A stretch of DNA of 63,195 bases, filler included, from Reticulomyxa filosa (Eukaryota > Protista > Foraminifera): NCBI GenBank assembly GCA_000512085.1. It is 20 parts of 20 records of this genome, joined end to end, with 100 filler letters (N's around TTAATTAATTAA, not from the genome) between each part and the next. Parts side by side here need not be neighbours in the genome. Positions count along the whole stretch, not along the records: positions 1 to 8,043 come from ASPP01001139.1; 19 more parts are not named here. One strand, written 5' to 3'. The notes under the pieces are model-generated. The model worked only from the letters and a program-made list of their open reading frames with translations. It was not told the DNA's origin and did no database searches. Position 1 is the stretch's first letter, and every line of letters starts with the position of its first letter. The position numbers and the translations under genes were made by a program. Of the stretch, positions 1 through 56,297 are shown piece by piece.

Positions 1-978
1 TGATTGTGATTGTGATTGTGATTGAGATTGAGATGAAGTGGGTTTCCTACAATCATGAAATAAGCACCAAAGATTAGTAATATTACTACAAGAATTATGA
101 CCAATGCCATCCACAATCAAATGGATATGACATAAACGTTGAATGCTATCATACAAAATGGAGTTGAATCGACAATTGGTCTTGTCGCAAAGATAAGTTT
201 TAAACGAACACATATCGGATTCCTTTTGCAAGTGATCAATAATAGCAGAATCATCCACAAATAACTCAAAGGCATAGCGATTGCGCAATGTGTGTTCGTT
301 GGTATCTATAAAGATATCATCAAATTCGGGTAAGAAATATTCGACTCCACAATATTGAATAAGCACTGTCCCCATCGGAATATCGCATTTGGCTTTCAAT
401 CCTATTTGTCCATTTAACCAATGAGCATTATCATTTTGTTCGATCTTTACTTGGTCCAACATTTCATCACAAGTCATTGTTTTATACTCCAATTCCGTTT
501 TATTGCCAGTGCCATTTTTCCTTGAATTTTTATTTATTTTTACTTCTGATGGAATTACACAGCGTTGTGGATTCGAATTCCATTCACCATTAAGTTCAAT
601 AAATTTTTTGATACTGAGTGAATAACTTTTGTGCGATTTTTTATTTATTTCAATTGTCAGCTCCTTTTATTTTTATTTTCGTATATTTTTTTTCACATGA
701 CTAAACTTTTTTAAAAGTTTTTTTTTAACATTTCTAAACACGCTGCGACAAAATGTACGGACTTGGCCAACATGACTGCTACATTGGAAAAAAGACCCAA
801 TGTTCATGTCATTCTTCCATAGCTCCACTTTCCATAGACGTGGTGGTTCACCATTAATCACAAGATCGCCCAAATAGTTCGTCCTTGATTGCAATTCCAC
901 AAGTCTTTGCTTCAGCTTTTTATTCTTTTCTTTTGCGTCGATCAATCTCTTTTGAGGTTCCTTCAAATCAATTATCAT
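1..978 (-). CDS. SET-domain (lysine methyltransferase-like) protein, 3'-truncated by the window start; 2 exons (intron ~729-664)
   Basis: Manual translation of 663->1 is open throughout: ...WLNGQIGLKAKCDIPMGTVLIQYCG...RYAFEL...LIVDGIG...FHDCRK, matching SET motifs (GxG-L-A---I--G--I-EY-G, IDg, NHxC-like). A 66-nt GT..AG phase-0 intron joins it in frame to ORF 978-730. Confidence 0.6.
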
Positions 979-1636
979 TTCTTTGTATTTTTTTGCCTGT
1001 ATTTTCGTTTACATTTTCCACAATACAAAACACTTTACCAATCTTTATTATTTTAAAAAAATAACCTTACCTGCGACAAAAAAAAATCAATTTCTTCCTG
1101 CTGCCTTTCATAGGCAAGTGCCAATTCCAGGCAATCTTTTTTTTTTTTTCAAACTCCTCTGGAGTATCCTCCTCCACCTTTAACATTTCTAAGAGTAATT
1201 TTTTTTTTTTGTAAAAAAAAGTTAACCCCTGTTTTCGTTGTTTACTTGTTTTTTCTTTGTGGAATATGTATTTGTTATAATAGTGATGCAGATAACTATT
1301 GTTTGATGGATTATCATATTATTGATAAGAAAAAAGAATTTTCAATTGGAAGTTACGGAAAAGATAGATTAATTGTTATTTTTAATTTTTAATTTTTTAT
1401 TTTATCAAAAAATGATAATATAAAATCAACTAGACATCAAATAAAGTCATTGAAAAAATGTGGTTAATCAGTTTATATTCATCAAAAATCCTTCTGAAAC
1501 GATTTGTAGACTGATCACAACAAGCTCAACAAAATTCTTTTTGTTGTAAGGATTTTCTTTTTTTTGGCAGAATGAACTATTGAAAGACAAGGGAGAAACA
1601 TAAAGGCAATAAAGTTGTAAGACTAAGATTTAAGGA

Positions 1637-2061
1637 ATGACGAGCAGTCAAAAAGTACGACTAGGAGCTGGAGGATCTCGACGCCCTGAAGCGGCCCTTA
1701 AAAAATTTACGTTTAAGCAAATTCAAGAGAAGGTAGCAGAGCGATGGCAAATACCAGAATATTATGATATATTAATGGAAGCTGCAGAAAAAGAGGATGA
1801 TGAGGGAGTGTATTTTAACTTAAGGCACCGATCGTCCCAGTCAGAAATTAGTCCGAGATGCCTGCAGGCACATAGGTAGACCAAAACACACTTTTTTTGG
1901 TGTTGTTGAGACTTGATTTGTGCGTATGTGTGTGCGTATAATGATCAAAAGGCATTCCAGAACGATTGAGAGGAAAGATATGGAAGATATTGCTTGATGT
2001 TCCCACTAAGAAAGCACAAATGGTTCGTGAATATGAAAAGATAAAAAACAACAATAAAAAC

Positions 2062-2093
<32 letters not shown>

Positions 2094-2733
2094 CAATAAT
2101 AATAATAACAATAATAATAATGATGATAATGATACCAATGACGATAATAATGAGATAATAAATGAAATTACTCCAATAAAGGCAGATATAGCAATGATCG
2201 ATGTCGAAGGGGACTCGAGTATGAACATATACGCGCCTTTGAGGGAAGACCCCCCTCATTTATCGAACCAACGCGTGATTCAAGCGGATATTGAGAGAAC
2301 GCGTCCCAATTTGAAGTGCTTCCAAGAGCCACATGTTCGAAGAGAAATGGAAATCATATTGACCGAGTACTGCCATCGCTATCAAGTGAGCTACAAGCAG
2401 GGAATGAATTACATACTGGCCCCGTTTTTTATGGTCGAAATGAAAGATCGAACTGACATTTATTTGTCATTTCAATCATTTTTAGAAAAGTATTTGAACT
2501 CAACCTTCAAAGACGACGAATTTGGATCCTTGCAATGTATCTTTCGTTTGTTTCGATTGCTTGCGCAGTATCACGATCCTTCTCTCAGTGTATTTTTAGA
2601 CCAACATGAGATTGTCCCTGAGGTTGGTTATTTATCATATATACTTTTTTTATTTTTATTTATTTGATTAACAACCAAATGACAAAAAAAGATAATATGT
2701 CAATCTCTTTAATTTATCTTGTCTTGTTTATAT

Positions 2734-2776
<43 letters not shown>

Positions 2777-5776
2777 AATGAACAGTTGTTTGCGTCTGGC
2801 TGGTTTATGACAATCCATGCAAACAAGTCGGATCAAGCGACGCTGCTGCATTTGTGGGACGAAATTTTGTTGGAAGCAGACACGTGCTTCCACTATTTTG
2901 TGGACTTGGAATTGCTGAAATTTAACAAGGAAAATATCATGGAAAGGTCGAGCGAAGAACTGCCTCAGTTTCTGGTGAACATGTTAATTGAAGACAAAGA
3001 TCACGCGCGAAGACTGATCAAAGAAGCACACAAAACATCGCACAACACACCCTCTTCTTTCCATGAATTGTTGCACAAGTGTTCCAAACACCAAGTGACA
3101 GTAGATGGTGATTTGTACTCACTTTTAGAACGCTTGCCGTGTTTGTCTATCGAATGCAGGGAATTGATTGGTCATTGCTATGCCGATACATTGCTTGCAC
3201 AAAGTGCTGAAAGTATTCGAGACAGTTTGCCATTACTTTTTCTTTTCTTTCTTTTTCCTTAATCTGTCACTGTTTTGACTGTATGTTAACATAAGCGTCG
3301 CCATTAACTCCGGCCATCCAAGCAGACGCAAGCAAAGGTCGATTCAATTTGAAGCGCAAAAAAGCAAGACGATCTTCAAAGATTACGACGTCTTCGTCTT
3401 CGACTTCGCTTTTGCCGACCGCGACGTCGGAGGCCAGTACCGACGCCGCGACAAATGCCACGCAAAGAGAAAACGACAAAGGGAAGGACGGCGACACCGA
3501 CAATAAAGATACAACGAGCAGCGATCACAATAATGACAACGCAAATGACATTGGCAATGCAAACGACAACAATATGGACTCGAATAATGCAAACAACGAA
3601 GATGCGGACTCAAAACAAAAAAAAATGAGTCCAAGAAAGGTTCGAAAGCAATTGAAACAAGCAGCAAAATACGCCGAACAAAAGCATTTGAAATTTTTTA
3701 TTATCGATTGCAGACCAAAGGAACAATTTGAAGCGGGACATTTGCCGTGTGCTTTTCATTTGGATCCCACTTTGGTAACTATTTATTTATCTGTGTTAAT
3801 ATGTGTTATGTGTGATAAATGCATTGCAATGTCCCAATAATAATTACAGGATGTTTCGAGCGAAGAGCTGCGCGAAAAGTTAATGTCTTTGTTATCAATG
3901 AGTGGCTGTCACTTTGTACTATTTGGTAACGGCCGAAGTGAAACGGAGGCACCCCCTCGTTTTTATGGGTCTCCTCACAACCATGCCAACGCTGATTCCG
4001 AATCTCGTGGCAATGACAACGAGTCGGGCAAAGGAAAAACGTATGGCTCGTCGTCAGTGCGGAACTCAGCCAAGCAATAATTTTTGCAACGAAGCTATTT
4101 GATGTCTTTTTAGAAAAACGCGTGAATACATATCCATTTGCGAAGGGGGATATGCGGGCTGTCACGAACTAATTGTCAAAGATTTGGAGCTAATCGATCA
4201 CGACCCGGACAAATGCATCGAATGTAACGAAAAGTGGAAGCAATGGTCGATGATCACGTCCATGAAACAAAAACTGACAGAGGCCGCACAAGGCATGAAG
4301 CGTCGTGTCATTCAATCCATACCCTCGTCGTCGTCTGTGATCAATCCCACCTCGCTCATTCCTTCCAACAAACGCAATGCTTCTTCTTCGCAACCCACAA
4401 AGACTATGCCTTGTTATGACGCTGCCGAATTGTGCAATTATTTCGATTCCAAAGAGATCCCGTCTCATCTTACACAAATCCATTTGTGCAAAAATGATCC
4501 CATGATTATGATATTTTTATCCATTGTTAATTTGTTGTGTTTTTTATTATTATTATTATTATTTTTCCTCTTTCGTTTGCAATTTCCAATTCTCAAAGTT
4601 CAAATGCTAATCCCCTTTTTCCCCTCCTCTGTATGTCTGGCCATGCGGCTGAAGCACAGTTGAGAGACAAAGAGACCAAAGACATTGAAAGATTTCGGAT
4701 GGCGACGCAAAAGATACTTTTGTTGATGTTTCAACAAATATTGCAATATTATTACTGTGAAATTGAACACATTGGGACTGTCGCGACCGAACACATTACT
4801 GCAACGGATTTGATCCCTTCCTTCAAACATGTCCCTTCTTCTCCCGCCTATTCTCCTCTGATGTTTACTCAAGTCACGAAACAGTCGCCTTTTGATTCAC
4901 CGTTTACATGCCTTGTCGGGGGTACTACTTGACTTGCTATTTACTATCTTACATAACAACAGCAATAACAATAATATTGGTTTTTTTTTTTGTTTTTCAA
5001 TATTATCTCCATTTTCTTTTGCAATTGGTCAGATCGTGGAATATATGGAGTCGCTCTGAACGACAGCAGCGAACATGCTCTGCAGAACGTATTGCAGTGT
5101 TTTGCTCCAATGATAAAAAGCGCGATCGGAACGTTGAAAGTAGAAGAGTTCTTCACACAAGACAAACATGGCACTCTTCGCTCCAATCGACAAGCGATCG
5201 CATTAATGCCCAAAGATATCAACAGCAGAGTTGTTATGTTGTTTCATCCGGTTGTTATCCAAAACGAACTCAATTCCGCACTCGAAGCCTTGCTAAGAGT
5301 TTAACAAAACACACTTAATGTTTTAATCACAGAGGAACAAAAAAAAAAATTGTCTCAATACACAAACACAGCTCGGTGCAGTTGAAAAAGATATCATTGT
5401 ACTTACGCTTATTGCGTCTCGGACAGCTTTAATAGCTTTAGTCGAACGCTTTTCTCACGTTCATGTATGGTGTGCTTGTGTCGACACAATGGAACACGGC
5501 AAAATCACTCCCGGAATTGGAAGCTTTGAGCAAAGATACAAATTCATCAAACCAAAGGGTTCAAAGAAAAAATCGCAAACTGCCAAAATAAAAACGCCGG
5601 AAAACAATGATGACAATGACAGTCCAGCAAACACACCTATGTCACCCGATCGTCCTGGACAAAGCGCAACTGATAATCACGAAAACAACGACGGCGAACA
5701 TAGCCATCCACACAATGTCCGCAGTGAGGATGTTACAGAAAAAGTCGAATCGCAACAACAAAGTCAAAGTACATAA
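1637..5776 (+). CDS. Multi-exon TBC (Rab-GAP) + rhodanese-like + C-terminal degenerate uracil phosphoribosyltransferase-fold protein (TBC1D23/TBCK-like N-terminal half)
   Basis: TBC motifs GIPERLRGKIWKILL, IQADIERT and YKQGMN. Rhodanese motif FFIIDCRPKEQFEAGHLPCAFHLDP...EGGY. UPRTase-like segments LRDKET, MPKDINSRVVMLFHP and ITPGIGSFEQRY. Phase-consistent GT-AG introns at 4526-4659, 4922-5032 and 5299-5371; the 5' exon structure is unresolved. Confidence 0.8.
2048..2120 (+). repeat. (AAT/AAC)n microsatellite encoding poly-Asn inside the TBC domain
   Basis: Direct trinucleotide repeat, in frame with ORF 1966..2667. Confidence 0.95.
2734..2776 (+). repeat. Intronic (GAT)n microsatellite
   Basis: Direct repeat just before the acceptor AACAG at ~2785. 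Confidence 0.9.
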
Positions 5777-7340
5777 CCATAATACTCAAATGTTAAACAA
5801 TCATCTCCCCATCACATTGGGAAAAATCATAAGTAAACAAAAGACTTGAATTAATGTCTATCTTCTTGTTTTTTTTGTTTTGTTTAAATATGCTATTTTT
5901 GTTGCTTAATGTTACCATTCTTTGAACAACAAATTCTTCTTCTTCGGATTCGCAAAAGCATCCGCTCAAGTAGTCATTGTTGAAAATATGTTCAAAGTTC
6001 ATTGAACAAAATTGTATTCACAAGCTTTGTTTAAAAAATATGTTTCACCGTTTTCATAATTGTAAGAAATTTAAAGTGGACGAGTTGAGCATAGATCTTT
6101 TTAAGGAATCATTTTGAAATATCAAAGTAGTATTTTATTGGAGAATTCTTTTTTGACAAAAAATAACTTGAAAATTATCAAACAATCGTATTGAAGAATT
6201 CATATATAGGTAAATATTACCAAGAGAGTAGTTCCTTCAGTCGATCCACTATAAAGTTATCAAAGTAATTTTAATATTTATAGCATTACTGATATGAAGG
6301 ACAATCGCTCTACGATGCTCTATTGCTTAGATCACTAAGAGCGAAAGCGAGTTCAAAGATGTGGAGATTTGGAATGCCGATTTGCTTTGCTAAAGATATC
6401 AAAGAAAACAGACAAATCTTTGACGCAATGGAAAACATAACATTAATGTTACAAGTAGAAAATTCAAATCATTTCTAATTGTTAAAGTGTTACGTGAGTA
6501 ACAAAAGTCCGCACATGAAAATACAAATCTTTTATCTCTTTGTAGTGCAATGCCCTACTAATTACAGGAGAAGTTCCGTATGAACGATGGAACCCTTTTT
6601 CCTCAGCAACCTTCACTGTCTTCTTCACTTTTCTGTTTTCTTATTTCTTTGTCAGTGAGTTGTTTATCTCTTTATTATTTAACTACTCTTGTTTTCCTTT
6701 TCAAAACTCTTTTAGTAATTACTTTCTTGCTACACTTTGGTGCTGCCTCTCACTCTTCCTACGTCTTCTTTGTTTAATTGCGTTTTATTATTTTTGTAAT
6801 TTTGCACTCAGTACAAAGTTTTTTGTTTTATTTACTCGTTTTTTTCATTAATATTTTAACTAAAACGTATAAAGAGAAAACGAGTTTGTTTTTTTTATTA
6901 AATTAAAAAAAAAAAGATGACATATGGAGTCATTATGATGTGGAATATCCCTTAAGTAAAAAATAAGAACATGACAAAACACTAAAACTGAAACTAATTC
7001 ATCAGAGTTAAAGTATTACATGTTTTTCAAGGAGTTATATGCATGTTGTTTGCAATTTGTTGAACTTTCATTAGTTTGATGCATTTGCTTTTTTGTTTTT
7101 ATAATATACTTCTGCCAAATTTCTATTTTGGATTTTTTGGAAAAGGAATAAATACATTTTTTTTCGTTTGTTGTTTGCGATATTTAATTAGTTCTTGAAT
7201 AAAGTAGTACATTGTCCCGCGTTCCAATGCAGCATGTTGCAAGGAAAAAATTCAGTGGGCTTTGAACTTGAAAAATTCGCTTGTCAGGGTTTTTTCGGCT
7301 CTTAATCCGACGAAAATCAAGTATCGAGTTCAAATAGATA

Positions 7341-8043
7341 ATGTCGGACGAGAAAACTGAACATAGCATTTCCATAAATCCTCCGGATGACGTGTCACCG
7401 GTATCTTTGCAGAACGTGTCAGCTCCGCTGTCGCCCTTACAAGAAGATAAATCATCAACAACACCCCAAGAAAAGAAATCTCCATCCAAGAGACTTTCTA
7501 GATTATCTAGCGGTCAGATATATTTCTGAGATAACCTAAAACCTAATATTGTGTATATCTTTATTTGTGGTGTAAGTAAATTTTAAATCACTTCAAAAGA
7601 GTACTCACAAATAAGTACGAATTAAGCATTAAAAAAAACAAAAAAATAGGCGAAAGCTTGGATGAGTTGCCGGCAAAGTCAACAGGACTACACGAATCGC
7701 AGGGATTAAAACGAATGAGCTCGCGTTCGAAAATCGGACAAGCTCACATCCGCAGTTCTTCGCAGTTGTCAGTGTCATCAGCACACGAAGATGAAGATTC
7801 GGTGAGCGTGGATTCAGAAGTAGTCTACGTTCCGGGAATGAAGATAAATGATGAAGAGGCGAAAAACTTATTAAAGCAATTGACAGATAAAAAAAAAGAG
7901 CTGAGTCGATGTCAAGCGGAGCTGCGTAAAGTAAACGCGGAAATGAAATCGCTGCAGACGTCGCATGACAATCAATTGCGACGTCTACAAACCCAAATTG
8001 AAAAGTTGGAAAAGGCAAAAGAAGAGGCGTTATCGATAAAAGA
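7341..8043 (+). CDS. Ser-rich/coiled-coil protein, N-terminal part (2 exons, truncated by contig end)
   Basis: ATG at 7341, intron ~7513-7650, second exon with heptad-like K/E/Q/L pattern running into the linker. Confidence 0.6.
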
Positions 8044-44688: not shown

Positions 44689-46050
44689 TCAAATATTAAT
44701 CGAACCCTTGTTTGAACCATAACACAGATTAATACCACAATCACTATAACTTTTTGCTTTCCTTTTTAATTGTAAAAATTTAAGACACATTATTCCACAA
44801 TCTCTTTCGCCATTTCCATTGATCACATACAATTCCCTCTTATTTGATCGAATATCCCAAAATCGAATTGTATTATCCCAGGATCCAGAACATATTACAT
44901 TTGAAATACCACTAATTTCAACATTATTTACTACAAATGGTGAATATTCAACAGCATATACATAATTGGTATGCCTTTTAAACACTTGAATTTGTTGACC
45001 AGATCGAATATCCCACAAACGAACACTTTTATCCCTTGATCCAGATAATATTGTATTTGCACTACCATTAATTCCTAATTCATTTGACCCATATTTTACA
45101 CTCCTTACATAAGCTTCATGCCCTTTAAATGCGATAAATTGTTTGGTTTTTTCGATATCCCATATACGAATAGTTTTATCATCTGATCCAGAACAAATGG
45201 TGTATCCACTTCCACCAATCAAACCAATGGTTTCATTGTTATTACTTTGCAGTGGTGAAATATCAACACACCAAATAATATCTTCATGTCCATTGAAAAC
45301 ACATAATGGTCTAGATGTTTTGACATCCCATAAGCGAATTGTTTTATCATATGATCCAGAACATAAATATCTACCACCTTTGAACGATGAAAATTCGATG
45401 CCACAAACACTACCGGTATGTCCATTGAATAATTGCAATTGTTGATTATTTTTGAAATCCCAAAAACGAATAGTTTTATCAAATGACGAAGAGCAAATGA
45501 CATTGCAATGATAATTATAATAATGATATAGCGAAAATTTTACGCAATACACAGTACAAGAATGTCCATTGAATAATTGAATTTGTTTATTGGCTTCAAC
45601 ATCCCATACACGAACTGTTTTATCATTTGATCCAGAACAAAGTAGTTGGTCGCTATCGAATGTGAAATAATCAATACTATAAACCCAACTATTATGTCCA
45701 GTGAAAGTTTTGAGTAGTTTAGGTGAGGAAAGAAATGTGTCAAGCATGAAGATAGTAGCTGCCTGTGTTGTATAGTAATTATGAAAACAACAAATACATA
45801 TTTAATCGAGTAAAGCAGAAAACAAATAAACTTAACATATTTAATAACAAATTTGTCAAAGTCATGAATCCATCCTAATTTAATGTCTAATGTTCGAATC
45901 CAATGTTGCATAATTTTTTGGATATCTTCTTCTGACTGACTCAATCACATACAATAAAAAACTAAAGTGACTAGTTCTTCCGAAAGAGCGAAAAAAGCTT
46001 ACCAGTGATAGCTGCGTTGACCCTTTTTTTTCATTTCTAAGAGTAATCAT
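44689..46050 (-). CDS. Expanded-family WD40 protein, 3 exons (46050-46003, 45935-45837, ~45762-44689)
   Basis: Repeated CSGSxDKTIRxWD blades; exon structure matches 54908..56297; ends INI* where paralogues end IWG*. Confidence 0.9.
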
Positions 46051-46777: not shown

Positions 46778-47346
46778 TCATCCCCAAACATGAATTAGGC
46801 CTATGTTTGAACCGTAACATAAATTAACACAGCAATTTTCATTTGATATTTGTTCATTGCTCTTTGTCTTCTTTTTCAATGATAAAAATTTAAGACACTT
46901 TATTCCTCCATGTTCTTCATCATTTCCGTTGAGCACATACAATTGATTCTTATTTGATCGAATATCCCAAAATCGAATTGTATTATCATCTGATCCAGAA
47001 CATATTACATTTGAATTACTACCAATTTCAACATTATTTACTACAAATGGTGAATACTCAGCACAATTTACACTATCTGTATGTTCATTGAACACTTGGA
47101 TTTGTTGACCAGATCGAATATCCCATAAACGAACACTTTTATCATTTGATCCAGATAATATTGTATTTGCACCGCCATTAATTCCTAGTTCATTTGACCC
47201 ATATTTTACACACTTAATATGACATTTATGTCCTTTGAAAGCAATGCATTGTTTGGCTGTTTCAATATCCCATATCCGAATAGTCGTATCATTGGACCCA
47301 GAACAAATGGTATATCCATTTCCACCAATCACACCAATATTATTCA

Positions 47347-47382
<36 letters not shown>

Positions 47383-48700
47383 CATTTTTGTTATTGCTTT
47401 GCAATGGTGAAATATCAACACACCAAACAGTTCTTTTATGTCCCTTAAAAATATGTAATGCTTTTGATGTTTCAACATCCCATAAACGAATAGTGTAATC
47501 ATATGACCCAGAACACAAATATCGACCACCATTAAATGGTGAAAATTCAATGCCACAAACACCATATTGATGTCCACGGAATAATTGCAATTGTTGATTA
47601 TTTTTGAAATCCCAAAAACGGATGTCTTCATCTAATGATGAAGAACAAATGACATTATAATGATGACTTTGATAATGATATGGCGAAAATTTTACACAAT
47701 ACACTTCAGATAAATGTCCATCGAATAATCGAATTTGTTTGTTTTTATCAATATCCCATACACGGACTGTTTTATCATTTGATCCAGAGCAAATGAATTG
47801 GTGACCATTGAATCTTGAATAATCAATATTATAAATGCAGCTATTGTGTTTAGTGAGTGTATTAAGTGATTTGGATGATGAACGAAACAAATCAAAGCTG
47901 AATGTATACGATAGATTGGATTTGGATTGTAATATTTGATAATTGGAGTCATGTTCTTTTTTATCTTCGTTATGATTGTTTATTTCATGAGCTTGATTTC
48001 CTTTGAATTTAATTTCTTTTTTTAATTGCTCAATTTCAATGAAAAGATTATCCTGAGGAACGTCGTTTGTTTATCTGTTTGTATTATAAAAAATAAAAAA
48101 TAAGAAAAGAAGTATACCAGTTGTTGTTTTAAGATTAGATTGTTATTATCCATTTTTGAAATTTCTTCATTTTGATTTTTTTCATTTAGTTCTTTTTCTG
48201 ATTTTAAATGCTTAATTTCCTATTTTGTCATTTGATTGTTGTTATCACGTTATTTTGAATTACTTTCAAGAAATAGTGCATATGCTGACAAATGTTTTTT
48301 TTTTTTTTTTTTTTTTTACATTAATTTTCTCGATTTGTTTGCATTGTTCATCATTGTTGCTTTTTACAAGTCTTTCCAATCTGTTCGTGCAAGTATACAC
48401 ATATTTTGATATTATTTAAGTTTGATTCATTTTTTTTTTGACTTTAACTGTTGGATGCTGTTTTTCAATTCAGTTATTTGCGTATCTTTTTTCACAGATT
48501 CATGTTGTAAATTATCAATTTGTTTCTATTTGTTCAAATAGTAAGGAATTAATGCACAGAAAATATTTTAAATATAGAAACATATACATTAAGTTGTTGA
48601 ATTCGTTTGCTTTTTTCGTTATCATTTTCTTTTAGCTTTTCAATTTCTGTGTTATTTTTCAAATGCATTTCTTTTAATTGTTCCTTTTTTTTTTTTTATA
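46778..48700 (-). CDS. Expanded-family WD40 protein with coiled-coil N-terminal exons; 5'-truncated
   Basis: 370-aa WD40 ORF extends upstream in frame to ~48052 (DNLFIEIEQLKKEIK...); further K/E/Q-rich exon-like segments run to the contig end. Confidence 0.85.
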
Positions 48701-51918: not shown

Positions 51919-52109
51919 GTCTACCTCGTCATGAGTTGGGCAGAGCAGCCGACAAAACCCGCCCCCGTCCCGAAGGCCNNNNNNNNNNNNNNNNNNNNNN
52001 NNNNNNNNNNNNNNNNNNNNNNTTAATTAATTAANNNNNNNNNNNNNNNNNNNNNNNNNNNNNNNNNNNNNNNNNNNNATAATAATAATAATAATAATAA
52101 TAATATAAT

Positions 52110-53100
52110 CACTCCTGGTAATCTATTGTATGTAATGGATGCTCGACCAAAAATCAACGCGCAACTAAACAAGGCCAAAGGAGCAGGCTTTGAAAATGCA
52201 GCTTTTTATAAAAATATTCGCATTGAGTTTTTAAACATCCACAATATCCACGTGATGAAAAAGTCGCGCCAAGCGCTGGCAAAGATCATCCACACACCCA
52301 AACACAAGGACAAGGACTGGCTGGCGCAGCTGGGGAACACCGAGTGGCTTTCGCACGTGCGATCATTGCTGAAGGGCACTCTTCGCATTGTGAATGTCAT
52401 TCATCATCAACGCTGCAGCGTTCTTTGTCACTGCAGCGATGGCTGGGATCGCACGTCGCAGCTATGCTGTTTGGCGCAGCTATGTTTGGACCCTTATTTC
52501 CGCACGACAAAGGGATTCATTGTTCTGATCGAAAAGGACTGGCTTTCGTTTGGACATCAGTTTGACAAACGCATTGGACATCGCACCCATGATAATACCA
52601 GCGACAGCGAACGGTCACCGATCTTTGAACAGTTTATTGACTGCGTCTGGCAACTCACGCAACAGTTTCCTTCCCACTTTGAGTTTAGTCAACACTTTCT
52701 CATCACTTTACTCAACCACGTATATTCGTGTCGATTTGGCACTTTTCTCGGAGACAGCGCCAAACAACGAGACGACTTGAAACTCAGTAAGTTCACTTTG
52801 TCGCTCTGGACCTTTCTACAAAATTGTCACGCCAGTGAGTCTTTTGTCAATGTCTTTTACGACTCTCACGGCACTCGAAACGATATCCTCTTCCCAAAGT
52901 ATCATTCCAAAATCATACGCTTTTGGAATAATTATTATTTGATGCACTGTCCAGAGCACATCATGAATGCCAAGCCCGAGTTTCTCGACACCAATATTTA
53001 CGAACAAAAGTTCTTGCAATTGCAAAAAGAGTTGCAACGTATTAAAAGAAAATATCGAGCCAAATCTGATGCCCCTGTTGTTGAAGTGGACATTGATTGA
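52110..53100 (+). CDS. Myotubularin-family phosphoinositide 3-phosphatase, catalytic C-terminal part
   Basis: VMDARP, VLCHCSDGWDRT (active CX5R), LDPYFRT..GF..LIEKDW.SFGH.F, SPIFEQFIDCVWQL. Confidence 0.95.
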
Positions 53101-54907: not shown

Positions 54908-56297
54908 ATGACAACTCCTATTAACGTAAAAAAAAATTCAGTGCAGCCAACGCTGGTAAATTTTCCTTTTGACCTTTCAAAAGCTGTTATCTTTAGATTT
55001 TTTATTGTACTTTTTGTGTGATTTGTGGTGGACCAGTCAGAAGAAGAGATACAAATAATTGTTCAATATTGGATTCGAATAATAAAGATTAAATTGGGAT
55101 GGATCCGTGATTTTGACAAATTTGTTGTCAACTATGTTACGTTTTTTGTTTTTTTCAAAAGTAAATATTTATTTGTTGTTATTGTTTATAAACATTATCT
55201 AATAGGCAACTACAGTTTTCATGATCGATTCGTTTTGCGTATCATCCAAATTGCTTAAAATATTTAATGGACACAATACTCGTGTGTATAGCATTGACAA
55301 TTTCACATTCGATGATTGTCAGTTCATTTGTTCTGGATCAGGTGATAGAACAGTTCGTGTATGGGATGTAAAGACCACCAAACAAATTCAATCATTCAAT
55401 GAGCATTTAAGTTATGTATTTTGTGTGAAATTTTCACAATATCATTATCGTAGCAATAAGCGTACTGTTATTTGTTCTTCATCAAGTGACAAAACTATTC
55501 GTTTTTGGGATATCAAATATAATCGATCATTCCAAATATTCACTGGACATACTTCATCTGTTTATGGCATGAAATTTTCACCATTTAATGGTGGTAGATA
55601 TTTGTGTTCTGGATCATTTGACAAAACTATTCGTTTATGGGATGTTGAAACATCTAAATCATTACATATTTTCTATGGGCATGAAGGTTGTGTTTGGTGT
55701 GTAGATTTTTCACCATTGCAAGGCAATAATAAGAATGATAAAAGTAATAGTATTGGTGTGATTGGTGGTAATGGATATACTATTTGTTCCGGAGCATGGG
55801 ATAATACTATTCGTATGTGGGATATTGAAACAACAAAACAGTTGATTGTATTCAAAGGACATGAACAGTTTTTGAATAGTGTAAAATATGGATCAAATAA
55901 ATCAGGAATTAGTGGCAGTACAAATACAATATTATCCGGATCAGATGATAATAGTGTTCGTTTGTGGGATATTCGATCTGGTCAACAAATCCAGGTATTC
56001 AGACATATAAATGCTGTGTATGCTGCTGAATATTCGCCATTTATAAATAGTAATGAATTTGGCGATGATTCAAATGTAATATGCTCTGGATCATACGATA
56101 ATACAATTCGTTTCTGGGATATTCGATCAAATAAGGAATTGCACACGATAAACGGAGATGATCAAGAAGATGACGGAATATGCTGTCTTGAATTTCTACA
56201 ATTAAAAAAAGAAAAAAAGAAAAGTAATAACAACAGTGGTTATGGTATTACTCTGTGCTATGGTTCACGAAAAGGTCGTATTTGCATTTGGGGATAG
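54908..56297 (+). CDS. Expanded-family WD40 protein, 3 exons (54908-54955, 55037-55135, 55206-56297)
   Basis: Phase-0 GT-AG introns; WD40 blades; ends ICIWG*. Confidence 0.92.

Follow-up and report, generated by a model that had tools for sequence, protein, structure and literature searches.

A TBC-rhodanese protein of Reticulomyxa filosa and its relatives with a uracil phosphoribosyltransferase-like tail predicted to be inactive

What could the fold of a pyrimidine-salvage enzyme be doing at the end of a protein of membrane traffic? This question is raised by a gene of the foraminifer Reticulomyxa filosa (GenBank assembly GCA_000512085.1). The gene lies at positions 1637-5776 of the window, by which we mean the whole stretch of DNA that was analyzed, 63,195 nucleotides (nt) made of 20 parts of 20 records joined by filler; positions 1-8,043 come from record ASPP01001139.1. 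An initial annotation read the gene as a Rab GTPase-activating protein (Rab-GAP) of the TBC type, followed by a rhodanese domain and by a uracil phosphoribosyltransferase (UPRT) domain without its catalytic residues. The TBC-rhodanese-UPRT-like gene is real, since its domains are matched by Pfam both on single exons and in relatives. The answer that we lean toward is that it encodes a rhizarian form of TBC1D23 (class TBC-I), in which a predicted-active Rab-GAP domain and a rhodanese domain are joined to a dead UPRT fold that serves as a likely noncatalytic adaptor or dimerization module.

The gene is a multiexon eukaryotic gene of 9 or 10 exons on the + strand, with its start codon ATG at 1637-1639, its stop codon TAA at 5774-5776, and short, AT-rich introns with GT..AG ends. 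We compared it with related proteins from database searches, which are cited by their numbers in our set (P0001 and so on). Every peptide quoted in the initial annotation was recovered at its position when motif coordinates were checked. The features are as follows, where GC is the fraction of G plus C.

1637-1875 (+): exon 1, with the start codon, the N-terminal module and the start of the TBC domain; based on tblastn of P0001, P0002, P0013, P0029, and P0006 and on a three-frame view
1700-1828 (+): conserved N-terminal module, KKFTFKQIQEKVAERW, exon 1, frame 2
1836-1877 (+): start of the TBC domain, PSQKLVRDACRHIG, exon 1, frame 0
1876-1951 (+): intron 1, 76 nt, GTAGAC..CAAAAG, GC 0.37, joining ...RHIG to IPERLRGKIW
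1952-2622 (+): exon 2, TBC domain with a poly-Asn insert and both finger motifs; based on PF00566 and on PDB alignments to TBC1D14 and TBC1D23
2623-2785 (+): intron 2, 163 nt, GTTGGT..GAACAG, GC 0.23, including a (GAT)n run at 2736-2775
2786-3224 (+): exon 3, matched by PF00566 and 70% identical to residues 358-495 of P0001
3225-3295 (+): intron 3, 71 nt, GTTTGC..CATAAG, with a less certain boundary because of its low-complexity surroundings
3296-3774 (+): exon 4, low-complexity linker and rhodanese start FFIIDCRP (3694-3717), matched by PF00581
3775-3849 (+): intron 4, 75 nt, GTAACT..TTACAG
3850-4052 (+): exon 5, central rhodanese strand GCHFVLFGNGR (3904-3936) and a low-complexity loop; 3' end uncertain
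4053-4126 (+): ambiguous stretch, either a 61-nt GT..AG intron at 4053-4113 (GC 0.39) or coding sequence with frame breaks
4127-4525 (+): exon 6 (from 4114 if the short intron is real), rhodanese end, linker and first UPRT-like strand
4127-4165 (+): rhodanese end, YISICEGGYAGCH, exon 6
4475-4525 (+): first UPRT-like strand, QIHLCKNDPMIMIFLSI, exon 6
4526-4659 (+): intron 6, 134 nt, GTTAAT..GCACAG, phase 0
4660-4921 (+): exon 7, UPRT-like N-terminal helices (LRDKETKD, 4660-4683) and a lineage-specific insert
4922-5032 (+): intron 7, 111 nt, GTACTA..GGTCAG, phase 1
5033-5298 (+): exon 8, UPRT-like core, with GIYGVAL... from 5038, GIYGVALNDSSE, LKVEEFF, and FHPVVIQNEL
5206-5298 (+): MPKDINSRVVMLFHPVVIQNELNSALEALLR, including FHPVVIQNEL, exon 8
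5299-5371 (+): intron 8, 73 nt, GTTTAA..ACACAG, phase 0
5372-5776 (+): exon 9, UPRT-like C-terminal part (LGAVEKD... from 5372), low-complexity tail and TAA, matched by PF14681
5501-5539 (+): KITPGIGSFEQRY, UPRT-like C-terminal part, exon 9

Could two adjacent genes, one TBC-rhodanese and one UPRT-like, have been read as one? The lack of a family match for exons 7 and 8 on their own would fit such an artefact, which we nevertheless regard as extremely improbable. A single open reading frame (ORF), 4103-4663, carries the rhodanese end YISICEGGYAGCH together with the first UPRT-like strand QIHLCKNDPMIMIFLSI, so that one exon serves both domains, as the initial annotation had proposed in saying that the rhodanese exon runs on into the UPRT-like part; no start codon context is needed for this bridge. 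At least 11 relatives with all three domains are themselves single ORFs, of 775-1272 amino acids (aa). In addition, the alignment of the domain with Toxoplasma gondii UPRT begins within exon 6. The three introns that follow (4526-4659, 4922-5032, and 5299-5371), which had been described as phase consistent, indeed have GT..AG ends and keep the frame. Spliced, exons 7-9 give 310 aa free of stop codons, which are 44% identical over 245 aa to the single-ORF relative P0001 (residues 898-1111; E = 9e-63) and 55% identical over 146 aa to P0015. Both exon joins, 7-8 and 8-9, are gap free against single-ORF relatives.

We then asked what the C-terminal part resembles. In the window, exon 9 matches the UPRTase family PF14681 with 27.8 bits (E = 2.1e-6; profile positions 147-203 of 206; cut-off, 27), and relatives score 32-91 bits. 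T. gondii UPRT is matched over its full length by the C terminus of P0001 (E = 1.9e-10), and residues 665-875 of P0004 align with residues 16-221 of the 224 of the same enzyme (E = 7e-17). UPRT motifs remain recognizable as LRDK-T, P-DI--R-V, and PGIG--..RY. We modeled P0004 with AlphaFold and obtained a mean predicted local distance difference test score (pLDDT) of 67.5 and a predicted template modeling score of 0.50; by domain, the pLDDT was about 85 for TBC, 60-70 for rhodanese, and 75-85 for the UPRT-like part. When this model was searched with Foldseek, at least 15 UPRT entries were matched with a probability of 1.00 and template modeling (TM) scores of 0.67-0.77, among them those of T. 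gondii, Candida (Fur1p), Thermotoga, Bacillus, and others. The fold match is that of the modeled relative, not of the window protein. These results bear out the proposal that the C-terminal part tracks UPRTase; the initial annotation had made this depend on a phosphoribosyltransferase (PRTase) fold, and a PRTase fold is what the relative yields. Two further searches were less informative. The ESM Atlas returned for residues 655-885 of P0004 only ordinary bacterial UPRT clusters with scores of 0.84-0.86, which is under the meaningful level, and none of 27 candidates scored in a homology search for longer proteins made with exon 9 alone. The C-terminal domain of animal TBC1D23 (TBC1D23_C, PF19430) was absent from the window exons and from the 19 UPRT-bearing relatives, which have the UPRT-like domain in its place.

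Is this domain still an enzyme? The loop that binds phosphoribosyl pyrophosphate (PRPP) in T. gondii UPRT, DPMCATAGS, aligns with HPVVIQNEL in the window, which confirms the replacement described in the initial annotation. The acidic residue and the A-T-G-G-S run of this loop are found neither in the window nor in any of 24 family proteins. In PG-GD-G-R-Y, which we take to be the C-terminal uracil/PRPP motif of UPRT, the window reads PGIGSFEQRY, so that PG and RY are kept and GD has become GS; of the 21 relatives whose alignment covers the motif, three (P0012, P0030, and P0050) retain GD. The Arg of the VRAG motif is Asp in the window (GIYGVALNDSSE, exon 8) and Arg in 1 of 23 relatives, and that of the QRDE motif is Glu (LKVEEFF, exon 8) and Arg in 3 of 23. 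From the 25-residue spacing in the alignment of P0001 with T. gondii UPRT, we infer that these two correspond to Arg77 and Arg102 of MtUPRT, which the accessible text of PMC3570474 gives as conserved PRPP-site arginines. The positions that are invariant in the family, LRD, P-D, A-R-L, D, and PG, belong to the core of the fold, and many members have long low-complexity inserts in place of the catalytic flexible loop. With these residues lost, UPRT activity is predicted to be lost as well.

An enzyme with an altered chemistry or substrate would be expected to retain the PRTase fold, as the P0004 model does with good local confidence (pLDDT of about 75-85), and the domain is present in every full-length member of the clade. 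Yet we found no substitute cluster of conserved polar residues, and the loop positions vary freely among members; we consider such an enzyme very improbable. A ligand sensor, as put forward in the initial annotation, is a less remote alternative, though still an unlikely one. Here GTP, UTP, or another nucleotide would bind at an inherited allosteric site and switch the GAP or the oligomeric state. According to the accessible text of PMC3570474, some UPRTs are activated or oligomerized by GTP (T. gondii, Escherichia coli, Sulfolobus, and Giardia). GTP- or UTP-bound UPRTs in the PDB (1jlr, 3g6w, and 7rh8) match the P0004 model, and the fold and a few motif residues, the loop Pro and PG, are kept family-wide. 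However, the classical pocket is gone, the PRPP loop being lost in 24 of 24 proteins and the two PRPP-site arginines in most, and both the restriction of invariant residues to the core and the low-complexity inserts speak against a sensor. Sensing of PRPP or uracil is disfavored in particular, because most PRPP-contacting residues have been lost. In its most elaborate form, in which a Rhizaria-wide TBC1D23 would be an active Rab-GAP whose dead UPRT keeps GTP/UTP-dependent oligomerization and thereby gates the GAP or the capture of vesicles at the Golgi, the idea is decidedly unlikely. If true, such a nucleotide switch would couple membrane traffic directly to the nucleotide pool.

Next, we considered the TBC domain. 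It is matched by PF00566 in exon 2 (80.7 bits; E = 1.6e-22) and in exon 3 (31.4 bits; E = 2e-7), with a cut-off of 25.2. The Arg finger, IQADIERT, lies at 2278-2301, and the Gln finger, YKQGMNY, lies at 2392-2412; in the PDB alignment they pair with IKLDISRT and YVQGM of TBC1D14. Human TBC1D23 has Gln and Thr/Ser at the finger positions in our alignments and is reported in the accessible text of PMC7274447 to be GAP-dead and without fingers, so the statement that the window protein keeps both, unlike animal TBC1D23, holds. Both fingers are kept in all 26 UPRT-bearing proteins in which the two positions could be aligned. Since the Arg and Gln fingers are intact, the domain is predicted to be an active Rab-GAP. 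Their retention is nonetheless no special trait of this family, as 110 of 116 TBC-rhodanese relatives without a UPRT-like domain also have both. The six fingerless relatives include carriers of the animal-type TBC1D23_C domain. Judging from these sequences, finger loss marks the animal-type branch, not all of TBC-I. The TBC domain contains at 2044-2130, after the GIPxxLR motif and before the Arg finger, a long poly-Asn tract, (AAT/AAC)n; in relatives, other low-complexity inserts occupy its spot.

Which TBC protein is closest? The TBC domain is directly followed by rhodanese, and TBC1D23 is the closest TBC match. In a PDB search with P0004, the N terminus of TBC1D23 (6jl7) was matched over residues 195-608, TBC and rhodanese, with E = 1.5e-41, followed by TBC1D14 with 1.3e-17; with the exon 2 core of the window, 6jl7 (4.1e-8) was nearly tied with TBC1D14 (4.8e-8). 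The same entry was the top Foldseek match of the P0004 model (E = 8.5e-20; TM, 0.72). The rhodanese family PF00581 was matched in exon 4 with 24.0 bits (E = 5.6e-5; cut-off, 22.2), and relatives score 21-37 bits. When alignments of the Cx5R loop, the site of the rhodanese catalytic Cys, were read by eye, the position of human C399 was Leu in P0004, and P0001 and the window (GCHFVLFGNGR) had a Cys four residues upstream of that position, with the Arg retained.

Ahead of the TBC domain there is a further module of about 55 residues (1700-1828 in the window; residues 10-70 in P0004) with the pattern KFT[FYH]xQIxxKVxER..PEYYxxLMxxA...GVxF..HPSW. It was present in nine of the nine full-length members aligned there and was not found in the human TBC1D23 chain of 6jl7. 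The module has no Pfam match and was modeled as a small strand-helix domain with a pLDDT of about 80.

How widespread is this architecture? The initial annotation did not know it from elsewhere, a view that does not stand. Using the TBC core of exon 2 as the query of a word-based search, we found 15 proteins, 11 of which have PF00566 and PF14681 together in precomputed lists. The closest are P0001 (1222 aa), with 80% identity, and P0003, a 504-aa fragment from R. filosa itself (RFI_15162), with 75%; Nonionella stella supplies the other close named relative. Pfam scans detected TBC together with UPRTase in 19 of 58 related proteins (11 of 12, 2 of 5, and 6 of 41 in the three sets scanned). When 1.84 billion representatives were searched with a profile made from 11 full-length members, 12069 matches passed E ≤ 0.001, of which 562 reached E ≤ 1e-30. 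With a custom hidden Markov model, the C-terminal domain was detected in 39 of 170 proteins; the 150 top-ranking representatives account for about 22 of these. Paulinella micropora (P0017) and Plasmodiophora brassicae (P0035) are named members. The N. stella protein P0006 ends exactly where the UPRT-like domain would start. Database sources already label some members [quoted passage not shown] and UniRef calls both the P. brassicae protein and P0029 "TBC1 domain family member 23."

P0029 is a full TBC-rhodanese-UPRT-like protein that UniRef assigns to the amphipod Hirondellea gigas. Its nearest neighbor in our set is a protein of N. stella (49% identity over 771 aa), next to which it stands in the tree, and the amphipod label may reflect nonamphipod sequence in its data set. 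Another protein named "TBC1 domain family member 23," P0019 of Plasmodium knowlesi (1601 aa), has both fingers (DVFRT and YKQG) and the rhodanese start; neither Pfam nor profile comparison detected a UPRT-like part in it, the profile matching only TBC and the rhodanese start.

A tree of the TBC and rhodanese part was built with FastTree from 105 rows and 400 columns, after removal of 14 cluster mates and incomplete rows. All 21 UPRT-bearing rows fall into one clade of 28, with a Shimodaira-Hasegawa-like support of 99. At least three of the other seven rows are evidently truncated. P0049, P0052, and P0053 group with the Plasmodiophora member in this clade; the 130-210 residues that follow rhodanese in them show no UPRT-like match, which could reflect loss or extreme divergence of the UPRT-like part. 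Fingerless TBC1D23_C proteins adjoin the clade. On this tree, the UPRT-bearing proteins have one apparent origin within the TBC1D23 (TBC-I) family. Elsewhere in TBC-I, the tail is TBC1D23_C (P0060, P0083, P0129, and P0151). PDZ and fn3 domains follow rhodanese in P0051, P0054, P0058, and P0063, and a DIX domain follows it in P0101; these five are TBC-I-like proteins from the representative search.

We can now put together the reading that we favor. The pseudo-UPRT fold sits where animal TBC1D23 has its PH-like C-terminal domain, and by orthology with TBC1D23 the protein would act at the Golgi or endosomes. A conserved TBC-rhodanese core would be combined with exchangeable C-terminal adaptors, and the clade to which all the named rhizarian members belong would use the pseudo-UPRT as its adaptor. 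A role in docking or dimerization is suggested because other TBC-I proteins swap tails at this place, because only core residues of the domain are conserved, and because UPRTs are oligomeric; the accessible text of PMC3570474 describes them as dimers or tetramers.

Several points weigh against this reading. The UPRT assignment in the window rests on exon 9, which is 0.8 bits over the cut-off, and on transitive homology via P0001. Taken singly, exons 5-8 match no Pfam family, exon 8 finds no PDB entry even at E ≤ 10, and exons 7 and 8 alone are without Pfam or PDB similarity. The P0004 model is only moderate and unreadable for interdomain packing. Some motif residues persist, namely the loop Pro and PG, together with an Arg or GD in a few members, so some residual ligand binding may remain. 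The tree is a quick one, rooted only at the midpoint, and shows no order of events. The range "Rhizaria" rests on four named taxa; most members are metagenome or transcriptome proteins, and one is labeled amphipod. Finally, relative to P0001, P0002, P0013, P0029, and P0006, the reading frame of the window copy breaks at two places, about 1829-1835 and about 4125, and perhaps at a third, 4057-4077, and this copy may be a pseudogene.

The frame breaks deserve a closer look. Between FNLRH, which ends at 1828, and PSQKLVRDACRHIG (PSQKLV), which starts at 1836, there are 7 surplus bases that no homologue has. The rhodanese helix IIFATKLFDVFLEKRV (4077-4124, frame 0), in which 9 of 15 residues match residues 722-736 of P0001, is out of frame with both of its neighbors, exon 5 upstream and YISICEGG (from 4127) downstream. 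Moreover, a segment of about 76 residues that P0001 has between these motifs is absent from the window. All this would fit a decaying pseudogene of a real family, whose frame is shifted past codon 64 and again within the rhodanese domain, a possibility we take seriously but consider doubtful. Elsewhere the coding frame stays open over nine exons and about 1060 codons, no conserved motif is disrupted, and the TBC domain is 70-80% identical to that of relatives. The breaks at about 4125, where AA stands in place of a Lys codon (AAA or AAG), and at 4057-4077, which has a run of five T's, lie at or next to short homopolymers and resemble assembly indels. In-frame GT-AG alternatives are also available, at 1876-1970 and in the 61-nt candidate at 4053-4113; as introns they would remove the conserved GIPxxLR motif or the rhodanese helix. 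The breaks may be assembly indels or signs of a young pseudogene.

We also tried other explanations. A candidate intron at 3969-4069, which would join exon 5 to the frame of the helix, is unlikely, with a GC of 0.53 against 0.23-0.37 in other introns. Programmed frameshifting or an alternative genetic code was considered and set aside, since there is no stop codon or slippery context at the break sites.

Elsewhere in the window, Pfam detected three long ORFs with WD40 repeats and one for a myotubularin-like phosphatase (PF06602; E = 1.3e-97). These lie at:

44692-45801 (-), 46781-48070 (-), 55206-56294 (+), and 52027-53097 (+): WD40 and myotubularin ORFs, the myotubularin gene being at about 51-53 kb

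Smaller matches in the window are to a TRAF zinc finger, a type I phosphodiesterase, an alpha/beta hydrolase, a P-loop GTPase, and kelch.

What we describe is a variant of TBC1D23 that is shared by a whole lineage and whose tail is a pseudoenzyme, neither a one-off nor categorically new. In at least one large protist lineage, the TBC1D23 orthologue retains its fingers and carries a C-terminal module recruited from a pyrimidine-salvage enzyme. The PDZ-fn3, DIX, PH-like, and UPRT-like tails point to a TBC-rhodanese core with exchangeable C-terminal adaptors, and the family adds a clear case of a pseudoenzyme, a PRTase fold that lacks its active site family-wide. The practical value is modest, a defined hypothesis for trafficking in Rhizaria such as Plasmodiophora, Paulinella, and foraminifera. 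There is also a warning for annotation, as some pipelines call these proteins "uracil phosphoribosyltransferase."

How does the protein compare with known systems? In animals, TBC1D23 is a GAP-dead adaptor of Golgi tethers that is mutated in pontocerebellar hypoplasia. Like the family described here, it has TBC followed by rhodanese; it is the best match in sequence and structure to the N-terminal half of the family (6jl7) and its neighbor in the tree. It differs in three respects. The human protein is without the Arg and Gln fingers that our family retains; its tail is the PH-like TBC1D23_C (seen in P0129 and P0151) instead of a UPRT-derived fold; and it is without the conserved N-terminal module of about 55 residues that the family adds. 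Animal TBC1D23 is described in the accessible text of PMC7274447 as binding golgin-97 and golgin-245 and capturing endosome-derived vesicles. Gabernet-Castello et al. in 2013 (PMC3655817, as far as its accessible text goes) described for TBC-I both the rhodanese domain and a frequent loss of the R and Q fingers, and the word "phosphoribosyl" is absent from the main text of that survey of TBC evolution. Our literature searches on TBC or RabGAP combined with UPRT returned no paper describing a TBC-rhodanese-UPRT layout, only an unrelated one on Chlamydomonas, and the word "rhodanese" was not found in the accessible portions of Toxoplasma TBC surveys.

The second point of comparison is UPRT of the eukaryotic type (T. 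gondii, 1upf and 1bd3; Candida Fur1p, 7rh8), which is homologous over the whole domain and has the same fold. UPRT stands alone, whereas here the UPRT-like domain is fused to a trafficking protein and differs at the PRPP loop (DPMCATAGS to HPVVIQNEL), at the arginines of VRAG (to Asp) and QRDE (to Glu), and at GD (to GS). Bacillus PyrR and the mammalian UPRT homologue are precedents for a UPRT fold that is regulatory or not clearly active; both stand alone, and PyrR retains the PRPP site and binds RNA. We know of no such repurposed or inactive homologue fused to a Rab-GAP. Another parallel is TBCK (kinase-TBC-rhodanese), which, according to the accessible text of PMC7681195 and of bioRxiv 10.64898/2026.04.02.716191, likewise combines TBC and rhodanese with a dead enzyme fold, a pseudokinase. 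There, however, the dead domain is an N-terminal kinase and not a C-terminal PRTase, and TBCK belongs to class TBC-G in the accessible text of PMC3655817.

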